Positions 48,877-63,882 of a stretch of 64,000 bases of DNA are shown piece by piece. The notes under the pieces were generated by a model, which did not search any database, was not told the origin of the DNA, and saw only the letters and a program-made list of their open reading frames with translations. Origin of the DNA: Bacteroidales bacterium (GTDB lineage Bacteria > Bacteroidota > Bacteroidia > Bacteroidales > Marinilabiliaceae); NCBI GenBank assembly GCA_015061285.1, contig SUWW01000004.1:341-64340 (forward strand), read 5' to 3'. The position numbers and the translations under genes were made by a program. Each line of letters starts with the position of its first letter. The first letter of the stretch is position 1.

Positions 48877-49785
48877 TTAAACGTTCGCTTCTACTGTATA
48901 TTGTCTCTTTTTGAGTATAAACAATTCGTATTTACCTCGAACAGTTTCTGATAGTTTGGTTAGTTCGCTTTGGGCGTAGGCTAATCGTTCGTGATAGTCT
49001 TTCGTATAATCATATTCGGGATACTTCCAGCATCTATCTTCGTATTTTACATTCACTGACACTATCTGACGCAAATAAGTTATGCATTTACAGTCAAAAG
49101 TCTGAAGTGCATCTATATATTGCTGAAATAAATAGTTTAATTCATTTGTTAAGAACTTATTTGAAGCATATTTGAATGCCTCGATTATAGAGTCCATTTT
49201 TTTGTACTCTTCATGTCTAATAAATAGATTGGTAGGTACATACTGAATAATGTCATATAACTCTGTTTCAGAGAGCATCCCGTTTAATTTTTGGAAAACT
49301 GACTCATTCTTGTACTGAATAGAATCTTTATAGAACCTATCACAAATAGAATTGTAGTTGTTGATTATAGTATCAATAGCAGTCTTAGCTATCTTTTTTA
49401 GTTCATTGCGATTTGTATAAGGTGAGAGCCTTTGCTGGTTAATATCAAATGGATAATCAGTTATAGATTCATCTTTTTTGAGAAAACACACAATACGTTC
49501 CCATCCTAAAGTTTTTACTGCATAACCCAACTCCACTAAAACATTGGGATTAGGAATACAATCATCACCTTTTTTGATAGTAGTTGTTAGGTCACAAATA
49601 AAGATGTCGCATTTGCCTATCTTATTGAAAATTGTTGTCGGTATATTGGGACTGCCTGAACAATTACGAGTGGCCTCATCAATATTTACTAATTCATTTT
49701 GGTTTGCATAGTCTTTTAGAGCTTTCCTAATGTCATTTGAATTCTCTTTGACATCCGATTGCCAAGAAAAGAAAATTGTATACAT
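48877..49785 (-). CDS. TIR-like / nucleoside-deoxyribosyltransferase-like N-domain protein with helical C-terminal domain
   Basis: IFFSWQSD at the N-terminus and CDIFICDLT..NPNVLVELGYAVKTLGWERIV motif, typical of bacterial TIR-like (STIR) domains. Confidence 0.45.
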   Translation of the reverse strand: MYTIFFSWQSDVKENSNDIRKALKDYANQNELVNIDEATRNCSGSPNIPTTIFNKIGKCDIFICDLTTTIKKGDDCIPNPNVLVELGYAVKTLGWERIVCFLKKDESITDYPFDINQQRLSPYTNRNELKKIAKTAIDTIINNYNSICDRFYKDSIQYKNESVFQKLNGMLSETELYDIIQYVPTNLFIRHEEYKKMDSIIEAFKYASNKFLTNELNYLFQQYIDALQTFDCKCITYLRQIVSVNVKYEDRCWKYPEYDYTKDYHERLAYAQSELTKLSETVRGKYELFILKKRQYTVEANV

Positions 49786-49851: not shown

Positions 49852-50532
49852 TTAGCCTACTCCCTTAATCTTTATGTTGTTCCCCGTTCTAACCAGCTCT
49901 TTCGCGTCTTTCAGGTGCGCTTCAAGTTCTTCTGACGGGACAAAATAAATCTTAGGAGTATTTGCCCGTGGGAAACGATTGAAGAATGGATCTGTCGAAA
50001 CAACCCATTTTAGCTCAGCCATGTTAGGAAAACTTGGCATCTCGTCCCAAAGTTTGAAAAGACAGGACTTAGTCGCAACAGTCACACCTCGCTTGCCTGT
50101 TCTCAGACGAGAAACGCAAATGAGATGCTGGCGAGTCTCGGTATCATTATCGTGCTCTTCTTTTGTCACATTATGGATTACAGAAATATTCCTGTTGAAC
50201 TTCATGTTGATTTCTTTCATCTTTTGGGAGAACAAATCCCCATGAGGTGCATTGTCCTGCATCTGGTTATAGAGAATCCAATAGTGAATCATTTCATGGA
50301 TTATCGTATCCTCGACTTGCGATTCTGGGAGATCAAGTTTAGTACTTATGACAAACTGAAATCCACAATAGTGCCATGTGCCGTCGGGATTCTTATCTCT
50401 AACAAATCTTACTTGGCCAAGAAACGTTCGTGCATTGCTAAGTTTGAAGGGAAGCAACGGTAGCTTCCCTTCAAAACATAAGTCGTTGAATTCGCTAAAC
50501 TTAGCCTTTACATACTCAAGTGTAGGAATCAT
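49852..50532 (-). CDS. SprT-like zinc metalloprotease domain protein
   Basis: SprT N-terminal pattern FEGKLPLLPFKLSNARTFLGQ and HEMIH zinc motif followed by HG. The C-terminal 110 aa are unassigned. Confidence 0.7.
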   Translation of the reverse strand: MIPTLEYVKAKFSEFNDLCFEGKLPLLPFKLSNARTFLGQVRFVRDKNPDGTWHYCGFQFVISTKLDLPESQVEDTIIHEMIHYWILYNQMQDNAPHGDLFSQKMKEINMKFNRNISVIHNVTKEEHDNDTETRQHLICVSRLRTGKRGVTVATKSCLFKLWDEMPSFPNMAELKWVVSTDPFFNRFPRANTPKIYFVPSEELEAHLKDAKELVRTGNNIKIKGVG

Positions 50533-50538
50533 AATGGA

Positions 50539-53463
50539 CTATTCTTTCTCGCTTTCTAAATTTGCCTTATACTGAGCAAATAGTTCTTCGTCTTCAGGTG
50601 TAAGTACAACCTTGACAATGTCTGCAAGATTGAACTGAATGTACCAACAGCAAACGCTATCATCTATCTTGTCTACTCCAGTATTCTTGCTTGAATAGAC
50701 TACGTCATACTGGTTAAACCTATCTGGAAAAAGCTCGTAAGGACTGTCAGAATTAAGAGCAACAATCGCTTGACTTCCACTATAGTCTTGCGAAGCTCGC
50801 AGATAGAGGGCCTTGACCTGCTTAACCTCATACGGAAATACTCCATCGTTGTACGAACTCAAGTCGTAGTACTTGTCTGGATCTGCTTCATCGACAAGGA
50901 TGAAATTACCCATGATGTCTTTCGCAAGGTAAAGAGAACAAGTCGTTCGCTTTATTTCTCTTATCTCCTCTGTCTTAATGCCTGCAAGAATGTCGAACAA
51001 GAATCCTTGCTTGATAGGCAGGCGAAGGATGTCCTGTTCCGTATATGGCGCAGGAGGTGCAATCGTAATCTGTTTACGCGGAGCGCGTAACTTCTTGTTG
51101 CCGTTTATGGTGAAGATGCCTGCGTTAACCTTCTGCTGCACTACGAAGACTGGCCAATAGAACGGAGCATTGCGCCAGCCATTAGCTTCATCACCATTCT
51201 GACCAAGCAGCATAAGTACAGGTCTGTCTACTGCCTTATCACGTGATGGGGCAGTGTCGCTGTGACCATCGTCAGGAGAATCAATCCAACGTTTACCTTT
51301 CGTTGCTGATTCTTGGCGTTCACGGCTCATGTTACGACCTGTACGATGCAGGCAATAAATGAAACCATCTGAGCCAAACGTACAATGTTCGAGTGCGGTC
51401 AGCATCTCGTTCTTGTCCCAGAGGAAATCTACATTCTCGTATTCTTCGCCATAACGGAATGTACTGTCTATCAAATTGATGATTTCGACAGCCGTCTCGT
51501 ATGACATGAGGAAGAATTGCTCTTCATCGTTGACGTTGACGTAATCTGGACATGACTTGATGAGTCTCTCAATCTGCGAAACAGCATCAGATATTTCTTC
51601 AGATGTTCCTGTTTGAAAACCGACGGGGAGTATACGCTGCTTCGGTTTTATAACCTTTGTATTGGCAGGCGTGTACTTGTTAGCTGCACTTGGATTGATG
51701 CGATTATCATAACCAATCACCATGCTTGTGAAGTCATCTGTCTGAACGGTATCGCGATGGGCTTTCAGGTACTCATACATCATCGAATCGATGCTGTTGA
51801 TAGATTTGAGCACACTGTAAATGGCTTCTGTCGTAAAGAAACGAGTGCAGGCCATGTCTTCCTTGTCTCGTGCGCCATACATACGTGCATGTTGCAGAAC
51901 AGTGTCCATCTGGAACTTCTTGGGGTCACGTCCATAGAAGAAGCAGAGCATGTTGTCAATCGTGATGCCGCGATCGAGGATGTTGCCTCCTATGAAGAAA
52001 TTCATGGCCTGTTCAAGACGAAGTTGTCCTTTCTCGTTTAGCATGGTGGAAACTGGATTCTCAGAATTGACTACATTGATGGTGTAGTCATTGTACTCCA
52101 AGATACGCTTAACCTCTGCTTCAACTTCGGCAAACGTCGGGTACTTCTCACTGATGAGTTCATACTTGTTGCCAAGCTCGTTGCTCAACTTGAAACTCTC
52201 GTACGCATCTCTTTCCAAGTCAAGTATGTGGAGGTCTGAATTAGATTGATTCAAGAATGCATTCTTGATGTCATCTATTATCTCTGTGATGAGTTTTTCC
52301 TGCCAGGCATGATTCTTCTTTGAAATCTCGCAATGGATAAGACAGCTTGAATAGTATTTCTTGTTGGTCTTCTTCTTTACCTGTATACTACGAATAGCAG
52401 TAGCAAAGAGATAGCTGACAATTGCAAAGTTCAGTGAGTCAAGATTGTCAGAGTGTGCTTTCGATTGCAAATACCACTCATTTCTTGCCGATAGAACATC
52501 TATGCAGACCTCGTCTACAGGTTGGTAAAGACAGCTGTACATAGAATTCTCATCTTCGCTTAGTTCATAGTACTGACGACCGCCAATGTATCTGTTGTGA
52601 ATCGGTACGAGGCCAGTATAACGAGGCAACCAAGGTGATGCCTCTTCTCCATTACGTAGCTGTATCGTACCATCTGGTTGCAAATAGAGAGAATACGGTG
52701 TCGCTGTTATTTGCAAGTATCGACAGTATGTTGGCAGAGTGATGAACTTCTCAATGTGCTCTGCTATCTTCAACAGTGATAGTTCGCCCTTCCTCTTGTA
52801 ATAGTTACGGCTGGCAAAGTCTGCCTCATCATCGCAAACCAGAACTTTCTTACTACGAAGAAGTTCACTCTTCTCGAAAATCGCATTGAGATACGATAAG
52901 TTGGTATCCTCCTTTTTTACAACGATGATAAACTTGTTTGCTGGATTGTTGAGCTGATAATCGCTGAGACCACCGCGATGGCCAAGGTCAAGGATGTCCC
53001 AAACAGAAATAATAACTTTCTGGTTATAGGTCTGCTGATCCTTGAAGAAGCGGAAGTCATTGTTAAGTCGCTGTATGGTCTGCTTCGTCAACGTGTTAGT
53101 GCCTTTGGTCATAACCACTGCAACGTCAATTCCTCTATCGAAGCATAGCCCCATGATGCTAAGGAAGGTATCGGTCTTACCGCACTGCACTTTACCAAGC
53201 AAAAGGCAAGGTTGCTTAGCGGTTTCATCTTCCTTCATCAGCTGATCGACCATCTCGCGGACAACTTGTTCCTTCTCTTCCGTCATGAACTTGTTGTTCG
53301 CCTTCATCGTCCCAAAGATGTACTCGTCTTCAGGAATGGAATTCTCCATCTCAATGCGTTCCTTCTCATCCAGCACCCATTGTGGCACTGGCTTACCTTT
53401 CGCTTCGAGGAAGTCTATATAGTCGTTGACTTCGTCTTTATTTGCAAATCGCTGTGTCTCCAT
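50539..53463 (-). CDS. Z1-domain SF2 helicase-like protein with C-terminal ASCH/PUA-like extension
   Basis: LLLGKVQCGKT (Walker A), VCDDEADFAS, QITATPYS. Z1 core GGNILDRGITIDNM..LQHARMYGAR. C-terminal LPIKQGFLFDILAGIKTEEIREIK. Confidence 0.7.
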   Translation of the reverse strand: METQRFANKDEVNDYIDFLEAKGKPVPQWVLDEKERIEMENSIPEDEYIFGTMKANNKFMTEEKEQVVREMVDQLMKEDETAKQPCLLLGKVQCGKTDTFLSIMGLCFDRGIDVAVVMTKGTNTLTKQTIQRLNNDFRFFKDQQTYNQKVIISVWDILDLGHRGGLSDYQLNNPANKFIIVVKKEDTNLSYLNAIFEKSELLRSKKVLVCDDEADFASRNYYKRKGELSLLKIAEHIEKFITLPTYCRYLQITATPYSLYLQPDGTIQLRNGEEASPWLPRYTGLVPIHNRYIGGRQYYELSEDENSMYSCLYQPVDEVCIDVLSARNEWYLQSKAHSDNLDSLNFAIVSYLFATAIRSIQVKKKTNKKYYSSCLIHCEISKKNHAWQEKLITEIIDDIKNAFLNQSNSDLHILDLERDAYESFKLSNELGNKYELISEKYPTFAEVEAEVKRILEYNDYTINVVNSENPVSTMLNEKGQLRLEQAMNFFIGGNILDRGITIDNMLCFFYGRDPKKFQMDTVLQHARMYGARDKEDMACTRFFTTEAIYSVLKSINSIDSMMYEYLKAHRDTVQTDDFTSMVIGYDNRINPSAANKYTPANTKVIKPKQRILPVGFQTGTSEEISDAVSQIERLIKSCPDYVNVNDEEQFFLMSYETAVEIINLIDSTFRYGEEYENVDFLWDKNEMLTALEHCTFGSDGFIYCLHRTGRNMSRERQESATKGKRWIDSPDDGHSDTAPSRDKAVDRPVLMLLGQNGDEANGWRNAPFYWPVFVVQQKVNAGIFTINGNKKLRAPRKQITIAPPAPYTEQDILRLPIKQGFLFDILAGIKTEEIREIKRTTCSLYLAKDIMGNFILVDEADPDKYYDLSSYNDGVFPYEVKQVKALYLRASQDYSGSQAIVALNSDSPYELFPDRFNQYDVVYSSKNTGVDKIDDSVCCWYIQFNLADIVKVVLTPEDEELFAQYKANLESEKE

Positions 53464-53482
53464 AGTTGGAATGTTTGTTCTG

Positions 53483-54088
53483 TTAGCTTATAAATTCAAA
53501 ATAAGGATAAGTTTCAATATTGTCCAACTCGCTGTAAGTCGGATTATTGACAAGAAAGGCTTTCTTGTAGAATGAGAGGCTAAAATCTGAGAGGCCAGAC
53601 AGTCTGCAAGCTTTATATATGCCTGTTTCAGGACGTGTTATAAGGCCAGCCTCAACCAACATCTTTATGGCACTATTGAAACCAATAGTACTATCGACAC
53701 TTGAGCCGTACTTCTCGCTAAGTTTCGCTATTATAAGACTTGTTGGTACTTCGTCTTGTACGTGAAAATGTTTTCCAAGCAGTGTCACAAGGTCATAGAA
53801 TAGCGGATATGCAGCGCACATAAGAGCAGTATATACTGCGGTTTTGTTAGTCCCTTGAATGCTATTGGCAAGAAACTCGTGTGAATGCTCTTTTATGAAA
53901 GGTAATAGCTGATTATTTACGGTCATGCGTCGAATTGTTCTATTCACCTTCTCTGTGCGGCTTTTGCCACTTGTTTCCAAAGCGACAAGTTCGAGTATGT
54001 AATCTTTAGTACACGATCCGTTGAGTATTGCCGACATGGCAAGACTCAACGAACCTAACGATGCTGATGCCTTTACTCCTATCGCCAT
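53483..54088 (-). CDS. BrxA-like (DUF1819-like) small helical protein, tentative
   Basis: 201 aa. Start shares one nt with the PglZ stop codon. Position after pglZ as in type 3 BREX. Sequence resemblance is only loosely recalled. Confidence 0.3.
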   Translation of the reverse strand: MAIGVKASASLGSLSLAMSAILNGSCTKDYILELVALETSGKSRTEKVNRTIRRMTVNNQLLPFIKEHSHEFLANSIQGTNKTAVYTALMCAAYPLFYDLVTLLGKHFHVQDEVPTSLIIAKLSEKYGSSVDSTIGFNSAIKMLVEAGLITRPETGIYKACRLSGLSDFSLSFYKKAFLVNNPTYSELDNIETYPYFEFIS

Positions 54089-55548
54089 TATAGTCTCCCT
54101 ATCTTTATCAATGGTACAATCATTTCGAGAAAATGACTACCACCATGTGTTAACATTGTTGTTCTGTCATTGACAAAACAATGGTTGTCGCGTATTGACA
54201 TCCAATTGTCATGCTTTATCATACGTATATCTTGATTCTCTTGGAAGAAACGCTCCTGTTCTTCCTTGTTGTTATATATGAGATGCCTAGCTCCACGACT
54301 CCCGTCTTTATATAAGAATACTTTCTCAACCTGGCTCAGTGTTCGCCATCCGTATGAAAGCACACTACCATGGTCTGACGTCAGATATAGTTTATAGCCA
54401 GCATTCACAATAGTTATAATCTGCTCTACAATTCTTGGACACCAGTTCTCTGTCAATGAATACAAGTCTTTGTAGTCAGACGACGAATGCATCTTCTCGT
54501 CCATCTTGACGGTCACCACTGCCAGACATTTTATGCCCTCGTTTATGGCAAACTCATCTTTGTCGCTAATATATTGAACATCATAACTTCCTAAGCCTTG
54601 TGAGCGCCAGAAGTCCACCCAGAGTTTCTTTTCATTCTCTGGACTTTGTTTGTAGTCTTGTTGTGGAACAGCTCCGCGGAAAATGGCTTGCCTTGATAAC
54701 ATCGTGATGCTCGGCATCCAAGCCAATGTGCAACCGTCTTCTATGTTGATTGTCTCTCTGCCCAAGTATTCCTTCAGTATGACGTATTGCCAGTATGCAA
54801 AGCCATCAACAACAAGTAAGGCGATCTTTTCGTCTCCTTCTCTGTTTGCTGCTATGTGTGGAAGTATCTTATTAACGCTCTTGGCTTTTAGCAGCGCATT
54901 ACTCTGAAGTGTCGCAAAGTATTCTTTGTCTACCCAATTTTGGAAAGACTCATTTATCTCGTCAATCTTATTTTCTATGCCTTCGTAGACACCTTCTTTG
55001 ATTGCTTTAGCCAGAACCTGTGAAACTAAAGAGATAGTAGTTGCCTTATTCCAATCTAATTCAATGTCAGCAAGTTGCTTCGCCAAATAATCTGCCGATT
55101 TGCGTTTCTTGTCTGCAAGATCTTTGGCAATTGCTTGAACGAGTAGTGTACATTCCTGTAAACTGACCTTTCTGATGTCTATTTGACTGTGTAGTATATC
55201 AAGGACTTCAAATGGTTGCTTTTTCAGTAGGGCTTTGTCTGCAAACAACGGGAAGACATCACTGATGGAAAAATCTACTACGTGTGCACTCCGCTTCATG
55301 TCAGCAAGTATTGTGTCTTTCGATTTGCAGATATATACGTAGCGTCTCCCAGTAGAAACTTTATAGTGCAATTCGTAGTGTATGCGCAGTTGCAGATTAC
55401 TGCCGACAACGACTTCTATGCCACAATCCTGAAGTAAAAGTGCGCGCACCACATCTTGTGAGAGAAATCCGTCGGGATTCTCCACAATGCTCAGATTGCA
55501 GTAGTCTACCGTAATCCGTTGTGCTACTTTCTTTATCAGATCGCTCAT
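54088..55548 (-). CDS. pglZ: PglZ-domain alkaline-phosphatase-superfamily protein (short form, 486 aa)
   Basis: ALLVVDGFAYWQ, MPSITMLSRQAIFRG, LTSDHGS and THGGSHFLEMIVP motifs. Confidence 0.8.
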   Translation of the reverse strand: MSDLIKKVAQRITVDYCNLSIVENPDGFLSQDVVRALLLQDCGIEVVVGSNLQLRIHYELHYKVSTGRRYVYICKSKDTILADMKRSAHVVDFSISDVFPLFADKALLKKQPFEVLDILHSQIDIRKVSLQECTLLVQAIAKDLADKKRKSADYLAKQLADIELDWNKATTISLVSQVLAKAIKEGVYEGIENKIDEINESFQNWVDKEYFATLQSNALLKAKSVNKILPHIAANREGDEKIALLVVDGFAYWQYVILKEYLGRETINIEDGCTLAWMPSITMLSRQAIFRGAVPQQDYKQSPENEKKLWVDFWRSQGLGSYDVQYISDKDEFAINEGIKCLAVVTVKMDEKMHSSSDYKDLYSLTENWCPRIVEQIITIVNAGYKLYLTSDHGSVLSYGWRTLSQVEKVFLYKDGSRGARHLIYNNKEEQERFFQENQDIRMIKHDNWMSIRDNHCFVNDRTTMLTHGGSHFLEMIVPLIKIGRL

Positions 55549-56024
55549 CAGTCCTTGAATTGTTTCTCTATTTCAAGGCGTCGTTCACGTCCATTATTGA
55601 TGGCCACCTTTACCCATTCCTCGTATTCTGTTCCGTCTATAAGGCTTTGTATTATGGCCGTCAGCACTTCTTTCTCTAAGCAACCTGCAGCAAGGTCAAG
55701 CACCAGTTCTTCGGTGTCCTTCATGAAACTTTGGGCTGCCAGCAAGTAACCATTTTGCAGTAGGAAGTACATCGTCAGTGTGATTGATATGCGCTTGTTG
55801 CAGTCCTCAAAGTAGTGACCTCTGCATAGGCTAAACATCATATATGCAGCTTTGTCAGCAATTTCAGGATAGTACACGTCGTTTTGCACCATATCCAATA
55901 CTAATTGTATGCCTCCAACGTCACGCACTCCTGCTAAGCCTCCACCACTCTTTTCTACTGTTTTCGCGTAGATTTTGAGAGCCTGCTCATAGTCTATGTA
56001 TTCTATTCCCATGGCGGTTCTCAT
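55548..56024 (-). CDS. doc: Doc/Fic-family death-on-curing toxin
   Basis: Fic/Doc motif HYFEDCNKR (HxFxD[GAC]NKR). 158 aa. Confidence 0.8.
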   Translation of the reverse strand: MRTAMGIEYIDYEQALKIYAKTVEKSGGGLAGVRDVGGIQLVLDMVQNDVYYPEIADKAAYMMFSLCRGHYFEDCNKRISITLTMYFLLQNGYLLAAQSFMKDTEELVLDLAAGCLEKEVLTAIIQSLIDGTEYEEWVKVAINNGRERRLEIEKQFKD

Positions 56025-57029
56025 TTATTGCTTCAAGTGGTCAAGCACGTCTTTATTCTCTTCGAGCAGTCTGTCGAAGTCGTTCGACGTATCACCTAAG
56101 AATTTCTGATACTCTTCTGGCATAACAGCACGTATATAGGCTGCCAAATTACCATGATATACGTTTCTAAGCGCATTATCACGCGATGCCATCTTGACGC
56201 GAGCATCCTCGACAATAGGCTTTCCAAACGGCATGGCGGCCAACTGCTCTACTATTTCGCCTACTTGTGCTATGCTCAATGACCTCCCCAACTCTTGGGC
56301 ACGACGTGTAATTTCATCGGCTGCACCATTCTCGAAAGCAGAAACAGCTGTGAGAACCTCTGAGTAAAGCGTGTGCCTAATATTGTCCTTCTTGGTTAAG
56401 GCGAGCAGTTGTTTATACTCCTTGGCTTTCTCGCAGAATACAGCTTTGTATATCAAGTCTGTTACTTGAGCATACTTAAATGTCTTATGGCCTTCGACGT
56501 ATTTGTTGATGGCATCAGTAAGATTCTTGTGGTAATTTTCTTCTATTATAGCAGAAGCAAGATAACCACTGTCACGTCGATTTATATACTTTGTGTTACC
56601 TCCTGTCTTTTCGTAGATGGAATACAGGACTATGTCGAGTATCTTGCTGCGCAACATCTTGGCCTTTTCGCTGTCGGTAAGTAGCATACCTACATTGAGA
56701 AAAGCTCTAAAATCGAAGAGTCCTAACAGAGTAGTTTTGGTAGCGACATCGATGTCGCTACCAAAACGTAACTTAAACTCTTTCAATGCGTTACCCTTAC
56801 ATAAAAAGTAACCATTGCTCATTATTTCCTCTTCGTTAGCCTTGATGCACCTGTCTATTGTGCGCACATCGACCTCATAAAAATCGGCCACTTGTTGCCT
56901 GGTTATCACATACTTCCCCTGAAACTCATAGAACTTTACATCCAGAGATTCCTGTATCTTGGGTAGGGCAATGGCGTTGTTCAATATGTTTTGTCTGTCT
57001 ATAGCAGACGTAGTCAAATCCTTTGTCAT
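56025..57029 (-). CDS. ORF6N/KilA-N-like DNA-binding N-domain protein, putative partner of Doc
   Basis: N-terminal FQGKYVITRQQVADFYEVDVRTIDRCIKANEEE resembles ORF6N-type domains. Its stop abuts the doc ATG. Confidence 0.45.
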   Translation of the reverse strand: MTKDLTTSAIDRQNILNNAIALPKIQESLDVKFYEFQGKYVITRQQVADFYEVDVRTIDRCIKANEEEIMSNGYFLCKGNALKEFKLRFGSDIDVATKTTLLGLFDFRAFLNVGMLLTDSEKAKMLRSKILDIVLYSIYEKTGGNTKYINRRDSGYLASAIIEENYHKNLTDAINKYVEGHKTFKYAQVTDLIYKAVFCEKAKEYKQLLALTKKDNIRHTLYSEVLTAVSAFENGAADEITRRAQELGRSLSIAQVGEIVEQLAAMPFGKPIVEDARVKMASRDNALRNVYHGNLAAYIRAVMPEEYQKFLGDTSNDFDRLLEENKDVLDHLKQ

Positions 57030-57048
57030 ATCTAATGCTTTCGGCCTA

Positions 57049-59769
57049 TTATATCTTATTCATCGCTATATCGTAGAGCATGAGCAGCACCTCATCCTCA
57101 TCTCGGAGGTTCTGCGGTATCTTATCGCCTACGGCAACTATCGTCTGAAAGTCGTGGTCGCTGTAGCACTGTTGGAAGCCTGCTCGTAGAGCCTCTACGC
57201 GAGCCTCTTTTATTCGGCCTTTCTTGTTTGCTGCTTCTACGTACACCTTGAACTCTCGGAGCAGAGCTTTGTTGCGTAGGACTTCCTTATCAACGTTATC
57301 GTGAACATCTGGCAAGCGCCACTTGCCATCTTCCATCTCTATGAAGTTTTCTTCGAGTATGGTCTTCAGCTCTGGCAGAATATCTCCCTTGCGGGTTGCT
57401 ACGAGGGCTTTCATCCACTTGGGCTGCAACTCCTGATAGGTCTGCGCTCCATTGACTTTGAGCTCGTTCTTTAGCCAATTGATGCCTTCCTCCTCACTGC
57501 CGATAAACAGAGCCAATACGGCCATTCCGTCTGTATTCTTCTTCTTTTCTTCGTATTCCGCTGCTTGCGCAGCAGTGAAGAACATACCGTCCCGCTCGAT
57601 GTAGCGTTCACGCAGGCCTTTTTGAAATTCCTGTGCATCCATTGGCACTGGCATACCATGCACCACATAGTAACTAATTAGGCGGTCGTATAATATCTTC
57701 GGACTGCGCTCGACCACAGTAGTTGTCTTATTTTCTCTTTCTATATGGATGGCCAGATGCTCCAAATGTTGCTGAATGAAATCCCATACTACATCAGGCC
57801 TGTTCATCTGTATCTCAAATTGCGCAGACAACTCTTCTGATGGCTTATAGCAAGTGATAACAAGGTCTTGCTTCACGGCTGTTGTGGTTGTTACCGCGTT
57901 GAATGAGCCTTGTCTTTTATCAAGAGCTGATACGTTGGCAACTATAAATCCTGCGTATTGCAAAGCCGACTGTATTGAATTCCATACAATGGCATTTGTG
58001 TTACTAAACTCAACTGTCATCCATTTGCCAGGTTTCAGTACTCTCCAATACTCATAGAAACACTGACTGATAGTTTCACGATAATGCCGTGCATCTTTAC
58101 CTTGTGCAGGATTTTCAATGGCTTCGTGGCTATTGTTTGTTACTACTCGCAGCCACGGCTCGGGAAGTGAGTTTAGCTCTGAATAATAGATATTTGCGCC
58201 GAATGGCGGGTCTGTAAATATATAGTCAACGCTGTCGTCGGACAACTGAAGTGAATCGGCAGAGCCAACATAAAGTGCATTTGGACGCTCCTTTGCAAGA
58301 AATTCTGCGGTACGTACCATAGCGCTGTATTTATCACCTATTTGCTCCAATACAGAAGTTTCGGTGGGTGCATTCGGCACATAAAGCGTTCCTTTCAAAA
58401 ATCCAGCATTCCAACCGCCACCACCATTGAAATAGTAATTTATATGCACACGGTTCATACACGTCGAACGGTTAATCATTGCCGTGAACATAAAACGTAA
58501 TGCGTGTGGCATCTTTGACTTTTCAATTTTATCGTAGAGTTTAGCTAGGACTATAAGGTTACGCTTTGTGTAGAATTGGTGGGCATAATAGATTCCCCTA
58601 TCGGTGTTTCTTTGCGTCTCTTGTCCCTCTGGTAGAGTGTAGGTTGGGTAGAAAATATCAATTTTAGTTTCTTCGATACGTTTCAGTACGTCAAAGTCGA
58701 AATCGGTGGGAGTTCTCTGAATCTTTTCTTTTCCAGCCTTGCCAACTACTATCACAGGCACCTGCTTCACTCTTTGTGTAGTTTTCTGCAAAGCATCATC
58801 AAAATATGTCTCTATGGCAGCTCTTGCAGTTTTCTTAGACTGCATAGCATTACAATGAGGACATACAAACTCATCAAGCATACATTTGTGCTCATGATCT
58901 ACAGCTTGATGCCAAAACACATACTCCTTCCCACATTCAGGACAAATAAAGATGTCACTCCACACTACAAAACTAATCTTCCCATTGGGTTCTCCTTTGC
59001 TATTCGTTGTAGTGTACATCCATCCGCATTCATCCTCCATCTCTTTCTGAATACGCTCAACCTCAGCTTTGAGTAGCGAAACATTTACTGGTGTGTTGTA
59101 AAAATAAGCGATATTGGTGGCATAGGGCGAGAGGTCGCCAATAATAGCATGGCGTGTTCCCCAAATGGGCTTGCGTCCGAACTGTTTTTCCCACTCAATA
59201 TTGATGCGCTTAGCTATTTCATCATTTTCATTGGAGCAAGCTGCTGCGGCAACACCAGTCATTCCTGTGCCTGCAAAGCCATCAAGCACAATGTCTCCAG
59301 GTTGAGTATACTGTAGTATATAACGCATTATGGCAGGGTGCGGCACCTTGGTATGGTACGTGTGGGCGGTATATACAGGATTGTTTTTCCCCTCGCTTAC
59401 ATCACTTGCATACGGTTCTTTCACCTCAAAATCGGCCTTGCGTTTGCCCTCGGCTTCAAGTTGTTTTTTTTCCTCTTCCCATTGTGCAATAAAGTCGTTC
59501 AGCCATGGGTTAGGGCAGGCCGTGTAGTATGGCGGGTCGGAGAGATTTATTATGTCGTCATCGTTGCCAATAGGGAATCCTTCTATCTTCCGCAACTCTG
59601 GCAATTTCTTGCGCAGCTCATCGCGAAAGTATTCTCGGCGTGCATCATCGTTTGGGAATGTATGGCCAAGACAAGTTACTTCGGCATTGTTGAGAAGTGA
59701 ATTGTCAACCAACTTGTCAAGTTCCTCGGTAGAGAACAGCGAGTTGTTATTGCTATCTTGTTTTGCCAT
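57049..59769 (-). CDS. adenine-specific DNA methyltransferase with inserted Zn-ribbon (PglXI-like)
   Basis: SAM motif VLDGFAGTGMTG preceded by HTKVPHPAIMRYIL. CPECG..CPHC zinc ribbon. FTDPPFGANIYY catalytic-type motif, plus an N-terminal SDPPYY. Confidence 0.75.
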   Translation of the reverse strand: MAKQDSNNNSLFSTEELDKLVDNSLLNNAEVTCLGHTFPNDDARREYFRDELRKKLPELRKIEGFPIGNDDDIINLSDPPYYTACPNPWLNDFIAQWEEEKKQLEAEGKRKADFEVKEPYASDVSEGKNNPVYTAHTYHTKVPHPAIMRYILQYTQPGDIVLDGFAGTGMTGVAAAACSNENDEIAKRINIEWEKQFGRKPIWGTRHAIIGDLSPYATNIAYFYNTPVNVSLLKAEVERIQKEMEDECGWMYTTTNSKGEPNGKISFVVWSDIFICPECGKEYVFWHQAVDHEHKCMLDEFVCPHCNAMQSKKTARAAIETYFDDALQKTTQRVKQVPVIVVGKAGKEKIQRTPTDFDFDVLKRIEETKIDIFYPTYTLPEGQETQRNTDRGIYYAHQFYTKRNLIVLAKLYDKIEKSKMPHALRFMFTAMINRSTCMNRVHINYYFNGGGGWNAGFLKGTLYVPNAPTETSVLEQIGDKYSAMVRTAEFLAKERPNALYVGSADSLQLSDDSVDYIFTDPPFGANIYYSELNSLPEPWLRVVTNNSHEAIENPAQGKDARHYRETISQCFYEYWRVLKPGKWMTVEFSNTNAIVWNSIQSALQYAGFIVANVSALDKRQGSFNAVTTTTAVKQDLVITCYKPSEELSAQFEIQMNRPDVVWDFIQQHLEHLAIHIERENKTTTVVERSPKILYDRLISYYVVHGMPVPMDAQEFQKGLRERYIERDGMFFTAAQAAEYEEKKKNTDGMAVLALFIGSEEEGINWLKNELKVNGAQTYQELQPKWMKALVATRKGDILPELKTILEENFIEMEDGKWRLPDVHDNVDKEVLRNKALLREFKVYVEAANKKGRIKEARVEALRAGFQQCYSDHDFQTIVAVGDKIPQNLRDEDEVLLMLYDIAMNKI

Positions 59770-59775
59770 AGTTAT

Positions 59776-62700
59776 TTACTTGAAGATGATGCGCACATTG
59801 TCGGCTTTGCTACCATTCGTTAGTTGATCAATATAACCACGGAATGCTTTGAGTGCTTCGTTTGGTGTCATCGGCCGATTGAATACATTGCGACGAATAT
59901 CATCTACCCCAATTGTTATCTTGTTGATACCTTGATGTAGTTTGCCGACAATGCTAACCAATCGTTCAGCATTCGTAGGCGACAACTCCTCGTCTCCATT
60001 GTTGAAGCGGTTCAGTAATCCCTGCTCGCTGTCGTCGAGAATCTCCTTGTTCTTCAGTAAGTCTTCGTCCCTGAGTATGACATGGAGTGTTTCTTCGGCA
60101 TTGGCATATATTGCTTCAAGTTCGACCTTCAAATCGCCAAGGTCGGGCAATTGCTTACCAACAAAAGACATAGGGTTGAATCCCTGATAAGGCACACGAA
60201 GCACTGCGTCTTTGTTGACATTCGGGCTACTCATAGTGAGCGACTGAATCTTCCTCTCCCATTCGCTATACTGTGTGGCCATAGAGAAGTAGCCATTGCT
60301 TTGGTCTGCTCTACAGATGGTTTCGCATACCTTCTTTTCGTTGCTATTGAGTAGCTTGTTCTTCTCTGCATTTTGTATAGCAGTGATATGCAGTCGGTTG
60401 TATTCCGAGAGATACCAGTCGGCATAATTGCTCATGATGGCATCAAGCTCAGCCTTATAAGCGCTCACCTTCTGCTCGTCGTTCATCTCGGCTATTACGC
60501 CGTTTATCTTCTGTATGGCAGAGTCAACAGATTGCTTCATCTCTTCGCTCGTCATGTACTGCTTAGCCTGATTCAAGTAGCTGAAGCGAGAACTGAATTC
60601 CGAGACTATCGAGAGTTTCTTCTTTATTTCGTCCTTCTTGCGAATCAGTGCGCACTTCTCCTTTATCTCGTTGGTAGGCCAAGGCAGATTGCGCATCTTT
60701 GTTGGAGTAGCATAGGCCTGAAGTTTGTCGCACATGCCAGCCAGAGCTTTGAAGTCGTTGTTGAGTTTTAAGCCTTCGCTTGGCGATAGTATCTCGTGTC
60801 CTTGAAGTTCTATACCGTTTGCAACCTTGTGACCTAACTCTACTGCGTCAGCTGCAATAGTCTTGGCATTGCTAAGTAGTTCGGCATATATCTCCAGATT
60901 CTGTAGCTGGGCCGTCATGTCCTTGCCCGTGATGCCAAGGAAGAGCTCACGCACTGCCGCCACATTCATTCCTTTGGGTGCGCGGATGTGCGAGAAGGTA
61001 TATGTCTTGTCGTGCGCAAAATTCTCGATGTCAGCAAGATTGGTTGCATTGATACTTACACCACCAGGGTAGTCAATTTCAATTTCGCCCATCGCAACCA
61101 TGGCCGCAAGCACAAGGAACTCGTATTCAGAATCGATGTCGAAGTCGTTGCTGCGCCATTCGTTATCCCACTCTTTGAAGAACCGATGCAAAATCTCGTC
61201 TCGGTTGAGAACCTGCCCTTCGCCCTTGTTATGCAATTTTTCCTTTATGCTTATTGCATACTGGCAAGCATCCACACTGAGCTGATTGTCTTGCAAGAGT
61301 GATAGACCTGCAAGTATTGCATCGCCATCAGAGTTTACTGTCGCTGGATTGGCAATCTTGCGTCGTGCTCCTTTGAGAATGTTTACACGATTCACTTCAG
61401 TCAACGGAGCACGAAGAAGTGTGAACTTAGGATAGTTTGGCAACTGCTGACAGAAATAGTCTTCGAGTAGAGTGCTGGCTATATTGCTAATTATCTGCTC
61501 TTTAGAGCCACCGTTCATCTTGTCTGGCGTAACAGGTTGCGCCTCGCCTTGATAAACTATTTCTGTGCATTGCATGAAGTCGCGCTGGAAGAGCGCCTTC
61601 AACTTGTCGGTATATCGTTTCTTATACTCCTCGTAGAACGGCTTCTGCGAACTATCTACACTGGCTATAAGAGCCTCTGTAGAAGCGTATAGCTCCACAT
61701 AATCCTTCATCTCTTGACTTATCTTGTCAAGGTGAACGTAAACACTGTCTGGCTCATCGTCATGCTTCATCTTCGCCTTATTGAAGATAGGCATGAAGTA
61801 TATGTAGAAGTTCTGTTGCGGCTGTGTTGTGCTACGTTCATTTGGATTACCCATGAATATGTAGCCGTCAAGCATTATCTTATGACTCTTCCACTCTATG
61901 CGGTGACAGAATATCTTGAACTCACGTCGATATTGCTCTGTTTCGATGGGCAGATATTCCACTAGGAAGTTGAAGAAATGGCTATCCTTGTTGTCGTCAC
62001 TCATGGTGGCTACGAAGTCCTTAATCTTCTGTTCGTAGTTAACGCCGCCCTCGATGCGCAGGTGAAATTCCTGATTATTGTCGTTCTTCTCGAAGTACTG
62101 ACCAACAGTGGCCGTGACTATTTGGTTGGCCACGGTATTTATGGTGTCGAGCAAGAACTCGCGACTGAGGCAAGTCGCATCAACATAACAGAGATCATCG
62201 ACAAGATTCTCCGCGCTTACACCATTAGTCTTTTCGAGGCTGTCTTGAAGTATCTTTACCGCACAGGCATTGGCAATGCGATGCGCAAGAGGAGCCTTCT
62301 TTGCACGTGCGGCAGTGAAGTTTTCGTCTATCTTCTGATGGACTATATCCATGATTTCCGTCACTCGACGAATATCTGGATTGGTCTGCATATCGCTTAC
62401 CTGCAAATCTTCCCAATAGCTATCATAGCAGATAAGTCCAGGATTTGTCTCTGGTACATCTACATCGAGCAACGACTCAAACTTGCGGGTGAGAGTCTTC
62501 ATTACCTCTCGCTGACTCTTGCCAATCTTGATTTGCTGGAAGTTCTCAAAGAACGATGGATTAACAGGGAACAGGTTCACGTAGTTTTCCAAATTGGCAT
62601 GTATGTCGCTAAAATACTGCGTGAACTTGCTTAGATGCTTGCGAATAATGTCTTTCTGCGCATCATTCTTATGAAGTAGACGTTGTTGCACCACAAACTG

Positions 62701-63453
62701 CACGTCTTGTTTGGTGATTTCAATCTGACGGAAACGGTCGTTGACCTTCTGCAACATATTAGCTGCGAACTGGAACTCTGGTGCTTTGTATATATGCTCC
62801 TGTACGCCAAACACCATTCGGAATTTGCTGTGGTCACTCATCTGACCAAAAGCCTGTAGCACGGCGAGGTCTCGGTTCAAGTCAGCCGAGCCGCTACGTC
62901 CCTTTAGATAGCTAAGCATCTCGTCGATGACAATCATCAGGCCTTTACCCTGGAACGTTTCTTCAAACTGAGCCATCATGCGGTTCAATTTGTCGGTGTA
63001 CATATCAGGCTTGTCGTCCTTTTCTATGCTGTAGTCGACGCCCCATTTTTCGAGTTGCAAGTCTATTTGATGGCAAACTATACGCCAGAGCTCATCGTTA
63101 GAGCCTAATTCAAAACGAACAACCTTGTACTTTCCTGCAATATTTCGCAGCACCTGACGTGCCGTGTCGCTTTTGACAAATTCCAAGTATTGCTCGTCTT
63201 CGGCCACAAGAGAAAATAACGACATCAGGTGTGATTTACCTGTACCGTAATTACCCACTATCTGTAGACCGTATGTATCGTAACTCGCTGTGTAATCAAG
63301 ATTCTTACACAGCGTAGGGATTATATTCTTCTCATAAGCCTCTGAAAATACGAAATCGCTCACCAGCGAACGACGATAATCGTTCTCCTGTAGCCTATCG
63401 AATTTTACTACTTCGTTTATCGGTTCAAACTGAATAAGATCTCTATATTTCAT
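59776..63453 (-). CDS. brxC: BrxC/PglY-like large P-loop ATPase
   Basis: 1225 aa. N-terminal KYRDLIQFEPINEVV and Walker A GNYGTGKSH. Placed between the BrxF-like and methylase genes. Confidence 0.7.
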   Translation of the reverse strand: MKYRDLIQFEPINEVVKFDRLQENDYRRSLVSDFVFSEAYEKNIIPTLCKNLDYTASYDTYGLQIVGNYGTGKSHLMSLFSLVAEDEQYLEFVKSDTARQVLRNIAGKYKVVRFELGSNDELWRIVCHQIDLQLEKWGVDYSIEKDDKPDMYTDKLNRMMAQFEETFQGKGLMIVIDEMLSYLKGRSGSADLNRDLAVLQAFGQMSDHSKFRMVFGVQEHIYKAPEFQFAANMLQKVNDRFRQIEITKQDVQFVVQQRLLHKNDAQKDIIRKHLSKFTQYFSDIHANLENYVNLFPVNPSFFENFQQIKIGKSQREVMKTLTRKFESLLDVDVPETNPGLICYDSYWEDLQVSDMQTNPDIRRVTEIMDIVHQKIDENFTAARAKKAPLAHRIANACAVKILQDSLEKTNGVSAENLVDDLCYVDATCLSREFLLDTINTVANQIVTATVGQYFEKNDNNQEFHLRIEGGVNYEQKIKDFVATMSDDNKDSHFFNFLVEYLPIETEQYRREFKIFCHRIEWKSHKIMLDGYIFMGNPNERSTTQPQQNFYIYFMPIFNKAKMKHDDEPDSVYVHLDKISQEMKDYVELYASTEALIASVDSSQKPFYEEYKKRYTDKLKALFQRDFMQCTEIVYQGEAQPVTPDKMNGGSKEQIISNIASTLLEDYFCQQLPNYPKFTLLRAPLTEVNRVNILKGARRKIANPATVNSDGDAILAGLSLLQDNQLSVDACQYAISIKEKLHNKGEGQVLNRDEILHRFFKEWDNEWRSNDFDIDSEYEFLVLAAMVAMGEIEIDYPGGVSINATNLADIENFAHDKTYTFSHIRAPKGMNVAAVRELFLGITGKDMTAQLQNLEIYAELLSNAKTIAADAVELGHKVANGIELQGHEILSPSEGLKLNNDFKALAGMCDKLQAYATPTKMRNLPWPTNEIKEKCALIRKKDEIKKKLSIVSEFSSRFSYLNQAKQYMTSEEMKQSVDSAIQKINGVIAEMNDEQKVSAYKAELDAIMSNYADWYLSEYNRLHITAIQNAEKNKLLNSNEKKVCETICRADQSNGYFSMATQYSEWERKIQSLTMSSPNVNKDAVLRVPYQGFNPMSFVGKQLPDLGDLKVELEAIYANAEETLHVILRDEDLLKNKEILDDSEQGLLNRFNNGDEELSPTNAERLVSIVGKLHQGINKITIGVDDIRRNVFNRPMTPNEALKAFRGYIDQLTNGSKADNVRIIFK

Positions 63454-63468
63454 GTTGTTAGTTGCTTT

Positions 63469-63882
63469 TTATATGTATTTATAGGAAAGTCCTTTGAGGT
63501 TCACTGCAATATTGTCGGTGGATGATAGAAAATAAAGCTTGTCATCTTGCACCATAGCATCTGACCTTACAAACAAACACAGGCCTTTTGAGTACGAATC
63601 CAAGATTGCATAAACGTCAATCTTCAACTCAGGCTCGAATAGAATCCCGACATTTTCGATGGCAATGTATTTACCAATTGTTGGATGAACGCGAATCTGA
63701 CTTAGCACCTGCTTGTATTTCGACTCAACACCATTCTCCACTGACGTATCCTCTTTCACGAGTGCAGACAACTCCCTGCCGACATTGACGAATTGTATTC
63801 CATCGATGTCGTCTTTGCAAAAGACTATTCTATTCCTCGTGTTTTGTTGAGTGTACGCCAATATATCTCGGATCGAAGCCAT
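63469..63882 (-). CDS. BrxF-like small protein lacking a Walker A motif, tentative
   Basis: 137 aa, first gene of the operon. IAIENVGILFEPELKIDVYAILDSYSKGLCLFV resembles the C-terminal half of BrxF as I recall it. No GxxxxGK[ST]. Confidence 0.3.
   Translation of the reverse strand: MASIRDILAYTQQNTRNRIVFCKDDIDGIQFVNVGRELSALVKEDTSVENGVESKYKQVLSQIRVHPTIGKYIAIENVGILFEPELKIDVYAILDSYSKGLCLFVRSDAMVQDDKLYFLSSTDNIAVNLKGLSYKYI

Follow-up and report, generated by a model that had tools for sequence, protein, structure and literature searches.

We analyzed a window of 64,000 nucleotides (nt) from a Bacteroidales bacterium of the Marinilabiliaceae (assembly GCA_015061285.1, contig SUWW01000004.1, forward-strand positions 341 to 64,340; all coordinates below are those of the window). 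A co-oriented, tightly packed series of minus-strand genes spans 49852-63882, and its two last genes, encoding a helicase-like motor and a SprT-like metalloprotease, are the pair studied here. The pair comprises the following features.

50539..53463, minus strand: motor gene, 974 amino acids (aa), open reading frame (ORF)
53173..53196, minus strand: Walker A GKVQCGKT, residues 90-97, with the catalytic lysine K96; conserved in the consensus of 62 homologues
52819..52833, minus strand: Walker B / DEAD box DDEAD, residues 211-215; conserved in the 62-homologue consensus
52696..52707, minus strand: motif III-like TATP, residues 253-256; from the 62-homologue consensus
51736..52437, minus strand: motor residues 343-576; model match, fold assigned from PMC5861437
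50542..51021, minus strand: C-terminal tail domain, probably ASCH-like, residues 815-974; AlphaFold2, Foldseek, and profile search
50959..50982, minus strand: G828-I-K830-T-E-E833-I-R835 (GxKxxExR), between predicted helix α1 and strand β2
50533..50538, minus strand: 6-nt gap TCCATT between the motor TAG stop and the SprT ATG; sequence
49852..50532, minus strand: gene of a SprT-like (SPRTN/Wss1-type) zinc metalloprotease, 226 aa; Pfam PF10263, model, and Foldseek
50242..50298, minus strand: SprT catalytic site H79-E80-M-I-H83 plus H97; four residues invariant in 56 family members
49855..50145, minus strand: SprT C-terminal α/β domain, residues ~130-226; alignment, model, and Foldseek

The first-pass annotation of this DNA had read the helicase motifs GKVQCGKT, DDEAD, and TATP in a Z1 protein, and the ORF translation places all three. 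It had also put a SprT-like HEMIH metalloprotease 6 nt 3' of the motor gene at the operon end; this is borne out by the match to Pfam PF10263 and by HEMIH at SprT residues 79-83.

The adjacency of the two genes is conserved. In all motor-SprT pairs the start and stop codons overlap or are separated by a gap of at most 6 nt; the metagenome loci considered are the best 80 of 395 and are not phylogenetically independent. SprT proteins at least 60% identical to that of the window are found in 14 pairs, with BrxA and PglZ further upstream in 10 of the 14, and SprT proteins with 36-42% identity in 10 pairs, which have no BREX (bacteriophage exclusion) genes. Two SprT clades retain the pairing at identities as low as 37-40%, with changing genes flanking it on either side. 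The second clade is flanked by restriction-type genes, namely those for an N6/N4 methylase, McrBC, a type I R fragment, a GIY-YIG/RAMA protein, an HNH protein, and an M48 peptidase. The conserved block ends with SprT, since the genes beyond it differ between loci, and within the block the motor and SprT genes co-diverge. That the pair stays together in bacteria so far diverged from one another suggests a motor-plus-protease defence module that has not been described, and the conserved gene pair as such appears undescribed.

Residues 343-576 of the motor match their model at 84.3 bits against a cut-off of 25; among the control genomes, Corynebacterium glutamicum (C. glutamicum) also matches. 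The function of this motor class is taken from published work (PMC5861437). In more distant relatives (clade B), residues 75-794 cover positions 25-606 of the 621 positions of the PADLOC H-subunit model (Helicase_II). Because this coverage is nearly end-to-end, the window motor is read from its sequence as a predicted H.CglI-like core (about residues 60-795) with an extra tail. Sequence searches of PDB with the single motor protein, a full-length profile, and a broad tail-family profile gave no match, including the C-terminal domain of 6F1S.

The extra sequence begins at residue 815 with LPIKQGF and reads LPIKQGFLFDILAGIKTEEIREIK. The ~150-aa extension noticed in the first pass, at nt ~50584-51042, was roughly right in its range and is corrected here to ~160 aa, with its start at about residue 815 (nt 51021) and its end at residue 974 (nt 50542). 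The AlphaFold2 model of residues 790-974, built on a 62-sequence alignment, has a predicted local distance difference test score (pLDDT) of 92.3 and a predicted template modelling score (pTM) of 0.82; it starts with a β-strand (812-816), an α-helix (819-826), and a second strand (832-836), after which come more strands, among them a long hairpin, and a helix at the end. By this model the tail is a discrete, confidently folded additional domain. Residues G828, K830, E833, and R835 sit at the predicted α1-β2 junction, between helix 819-826 and strand 832-836; GxKxxExR is the hallmark of ASCH domains and lies at the α1-β2 junction in ASCH structures (PMC6803910).

Foldseek comparison of the tail with the viral library BFVD gives a best E-value of 4e-3. 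The top 21 matches include an ASCH domain, DUF3850 (twice), and an "activating signal cointegrator" (twice), with E 0.019-0.17 and probability 0.80-0.98; the query-normalised TM-scores of these matches are low, 0.27-0.33. In the PDB search the Zymomonas ASCH protein 5gus_A stands at rank 7 with E 0.16, and 6F1S is not among the top 50 matches; ribosomal proteins and capsids, at E>0.1 in this search, are treated as noise. With hhalign, the match to three Bacteroidales ASCH proteins is confined to the first 26-34 residues (best E 0.003 over 34 columns, probability 10%). Nothing was found for the tail in Pfam, NCBIfam, and PADLOC, Pfam ASCH has no match in a six-frame search of the window's own genome, and ten stand-alone tail-family proteins have no ASCH match.

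Searching 1.84 billion representative proteins with a profile built from 13 tails retrieves 187 relatives, whose consensus is again GxKxxExR. The family is mobile: it occurs as stand-alone proteins of ~145-165 aa, at the end of 280-340-aa proteins, and in fusions with Type ISP and type I restriction subunits (HsdR), with an M48 peptidase, and with helicases of the PIF1 and SNF2 types. Only 4 of 45 relatives match Pfam ASCH (best E 6e-4), yet no other family is matched by as many; the relatives also match the phage family phrog_625. We regard the tail as a distinct domain family, probably ASCH-like. The PUA/ASCH-like character proposed for it in the first pass thus stands in part: the hallmark motif and the BFVD fold matches favour it, while Pfam, PDB Foldseek, and hhalign fall short of significance, and the structure prediction and Foldseek search proposed at that stage yield a confident fold with weak to moderate ASCH similarity.

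The GxKxxExR residues vary among orthologues, being replaced in, e.g., loci L001, L003, L013, and L027, and the positions invariant among the orthologues (D849, F876, P877, K884, D920, and W940) lie outside the motif. Such partial conservation makes the role of the tail as a modified-base reader a conjecture. A sizeable minority share of probability goes to the tail being no reader of modified bases but a non-specific nucleic-acid clamp or an adaptor for protein docking, joining the motor to SprT, to the BREX core, or to a nuclease, with the motif as a structural relic; this would agree with the replaced motif, the invariant residues elsewhere, and the fusion of the domain to so many different motors. 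On the other hand, the family at large has GxKxxExR as its consensus, binding of nucleotides or modified bases is characteristic of ASCH and PUA-like domains (PMC6803910), and a reader of this kind is plausible in a methylation-based system.

Residues 9-118 of the protease match Pfam SprT-like (PF10263) at 45.7 bits against a cut-off of 25.6, and in a 56-sequence alignment H79, E80, H83, and H97, i.e., HExxH with the downstream third His ligand, are invariant; HEMIH is identical to the motif of human SPRTN. The model based on the same alignment has a pLDDT of 93.6 and two domains. Its sole significant PDB fold matches in Foldseek are the SprT domain of human SPRTN, 6mdw and 6mdx (E 8e-7 and 1e-6, probability 1.0; about 190 aligned columns, TM-score 0.43-0.52), followed by IrrE at E 0.06. 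The fold is SPRTN-like. Judged by its sequence the enzyme looks active, and by analogy with the SPRTN family its activity may be DNA-dependent. The C-terminal half, with conserved residues H136, C139, W162, W176, and F184-N-R, matches nothing in Pfam, NCBIfam, and PADLOC. This domain is tandem-duplicated in a 340-aa SprT variant (L119, 5001-6023; L124, 5001-5996), hence it is an independent module, and it may be a DNA-binding subdomain.

Upstream of the pair lies a BREX operon of the following composition.

53483..63882, minus strand: BREX-3-like core, in the orientation of the pair; Pfam, NCBIfam, and PADLOC
63469-63882, minus strand: BrxF-like; PADLOC BrxF E 5e-6 (weak but specific)
59776-63453, minus strand: BrxC/PglY; DUF6079 787 bits, E 4e-236; PADLOC E 8e-251
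57049-59769, minus strand: PglXI; PADLOC E 0
55548-57029, minus strand: insert, ORF6N and Fic/Doc pair; PADLOC candidate PDC-M59A/B, E 6e-142 and 4e-46
54088-55548, minus strand: PglZ, short (486 aa); Pfam 50.5 bits; NCBIfam BREX_PglZ_3 178.7 bits, below the cut-off of 250
53483-54088, minus strand: BrxA; PADLOC E 1e-11 (weak but specific)

The BrxC/PglY ATPase, the PglZ phosphatase, and the PglXI methylase thus stand together in one operon by Pfam, NCBIfam, and PADLOC, with the accessory genes BrxF and BrxA present on weak but specific PADLOC matches. The same gene order without the insert is found at L001, L003-L006, L013, and L016. Between PglXI and PglZ, the position of the Swi2/Snf2 helicase BrxHII, no Snf2 protein was found in Pfam and PADLOC scans of the operon.

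This gap is a variable cargo slot in the variant. Most loci have it empty, including L001 and L003-L006; in the window it carries the translationally coupled ORF6N and Fic/Doc pair, in G777 a 565-aa protein (L043, 12193-13890), and in L002 (798-2645) and L009 (6030-7882) inserts of ~1.8 kb. PglZ aligns to the 642-position BREX-3 PglZ model over positions 281-641; the N-terminal part usual in PglZ is replaced or missing across this Bacteroidales variant. On the other side, 66 nt downstream of SprT, a 302-aa protein (48877-49785, minus strand) matches phrog_3634 and, weakly and below the cut-off (E 2e-4), the CAP12/Pycsar TIR domain; it is not kept 3' of SprT at other loci and hence is probably a separate island gene. 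Further out, the guanine-cytosine content is ~0.50 across 16000-48800 and 0.41-0.45 on either side. The genes bordering the BREX island encode a 777-aa lysine-rich protein and a transglutaminase-like protein and seem to belong to a prophage, or to another mobile element, that abuts the defence island.

We give an even chance to the reading that the pair is a co-inherited, portable motor-protease module attached 3'-terminally to a type-3-like BREX operon, replacing the Snf2 helicase BrxHII; for its substrate and mechanism we infer the following. The tail would help the motor to hold or read nucleic acid; the action of the motor on DNA would recruit or activate the SprT-like protease, as DNA activates SPRTN; and the protease would cleave proteins on that DNA, be it phage replication, end-protecting, or anti-restriction proteins, or roadblocks ahead of the motor. 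The result would be a proteolytic arm added to a DNA-targeting defence. Several points weigh against this proposal. Co-divergence is expected of any two jointly inherited genes. PglXI is an N6/N4-type methylase, from which covalent DNA adducts are not expected, so that an endogenous crosslink substrate is not apparent. In no single test does the ASCH assignment of the tail reach significance; in particular, Foldseek against PDB gives nothing significant (best E 0.14), and Pfam ASCH (PF04266) has no match at E<=10 for the tail and five orthologous tails.

The protease might also be a caretaker rather than a weapon, clearing trapped or stalled protein-DNA complexes left on host DNA by a powerful double-stranded DNA translocase that works alongside BREX or restriction complexes bound tightly. 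In removing them, a dedicated SprT paralogue would limit autoimmunity and make the module tolerable after horizontal transfer. Enzymes of the SPRTN family cleave proteins crosslinked to DNA and roadblocks, and the fold match to this family would suit such a task; SprT is also dispensable in some lineages, as expected of a modifier of fitness cost. We nevertheless consider this reading unlikely.

It is quite improbable that SprT is a passenger. The SprT-like family is common and usually stand-alone: of 301 genomes sampled from a Prevotella genus, 180 (~60%) have one copy, mostly 25-50% identical to the window protein and of the same architecture, and the stand-alone contexts inspected are housekeeping ones, beside fmt, ileS-like genes, TonB receptors, and similar, which speaks for a passenger. 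Against this stand the adjacency in two diverged SprT clades despite changing outer genes and the close coupling of start and stop codons in every pair. Two further origins were rejected: BREX islands merely inserting beside a chromosomal SprT gene, since the genes past SprT differ by locus (moreover, several carriers hold a second chromosomal copy, and the window's own family is otherwise without a SprT gene); and a phage-borne module, as only one full pair was seen, at a viral contig edge, and the remaining viral matches share the protease domain alone.

Within BREX loci and beyond them, the motor stays coupled to a Spartan-like protease that is intact, which suggests that DNA-dependent proteolysis plays a part in prokaryotic immunity; the motor-SprT pair offers a simple two-gene system for probing it. 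The largely uncharacterised SprT-like proteins of bacteria gain a defined genetic partner, and a mobile, probably ASCH-like domain family recurring on restriction motors is identified.

Among known systems, type 3 BREX consists of BrxF, BrxC/PglY, PglXI, BrxHII, PglZ, and BrxA (Goldfarb 2015; PMC12839542). The window operon resembles it in having BrxF-like, BrxC, PglXI, a BREX-3-type PglZ, and BrxA in a single co-oriented operon; it differs in that the BrxHII position is empty or filled by variable cargo, a SprT-like gene is appended, and PglZ matches the NCBIfam BREX-3 model partially and below its cut-off. The first-pass suggestion that the pair plays the role of BrxL of type 1 BREX, an MCM-like AAA+ protein with a Lon-like domain, is not upheld. 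Both are last-gene BREX accessories joining a DNA motor with a protease-related fold; however, there is no homology, neither the motor nor SprT matching a BrxL, AAA+, or Lon model in Pfam and PADLOC, and the analogy is weak, as the BrxL Lon domain lacks the Ser-Lys dyad (PMC12839542), whereas SprT keeps all catalytic residues and is a protein separate from the motor.

Compared with the H.CglI-type motor, the window protein is longer (974 versus 632 aa), with an N-terminal extension of ~60 aa and the ASCH-like tail of ~160 aa; at the system level, the gene of a PLD/B3 R-subunit was not found in this operon, the partners here being the BREX core and the SprT protease. The tail shares with ASCH domains (ASC-1, EOLA1, YqfB, and ZmASCH; PUA-like) the β1-α1-β2 start and GxKxxExR at α1-β2, but has in addition a long β-hairpin and a helix at the C-terminus, the TM-scores are low (0.27-0.35), Pfam ASCH does not match, and its motif is variable among orthologues, so that it is better called a distinct family related to phrog_625. 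SprT shares with SPRTN, Wss1, and bacterial SprT the HExxH...H zinc site, the Pfam SprT-like match, and the 6mdw/6mdx fold; it differs in being a bacterial two-domain protein of 226 aa with a non-Cys-rich C-terminal α/β domain, and in being translationally coupled to a restriction-type motor and located in defence islands. The pairs FANCJ-SPRTN and Cdc48/p97-Wss1/SPRTN have unrelated motors and serve eukaryotic genome maintenance, not defence; in these systems an ATP-driven motor exposes or remodels a DNA-bound protein and works with a DNA-dependent metalloprotease of the same family, which is the logic proposed here for the motor and SprT.

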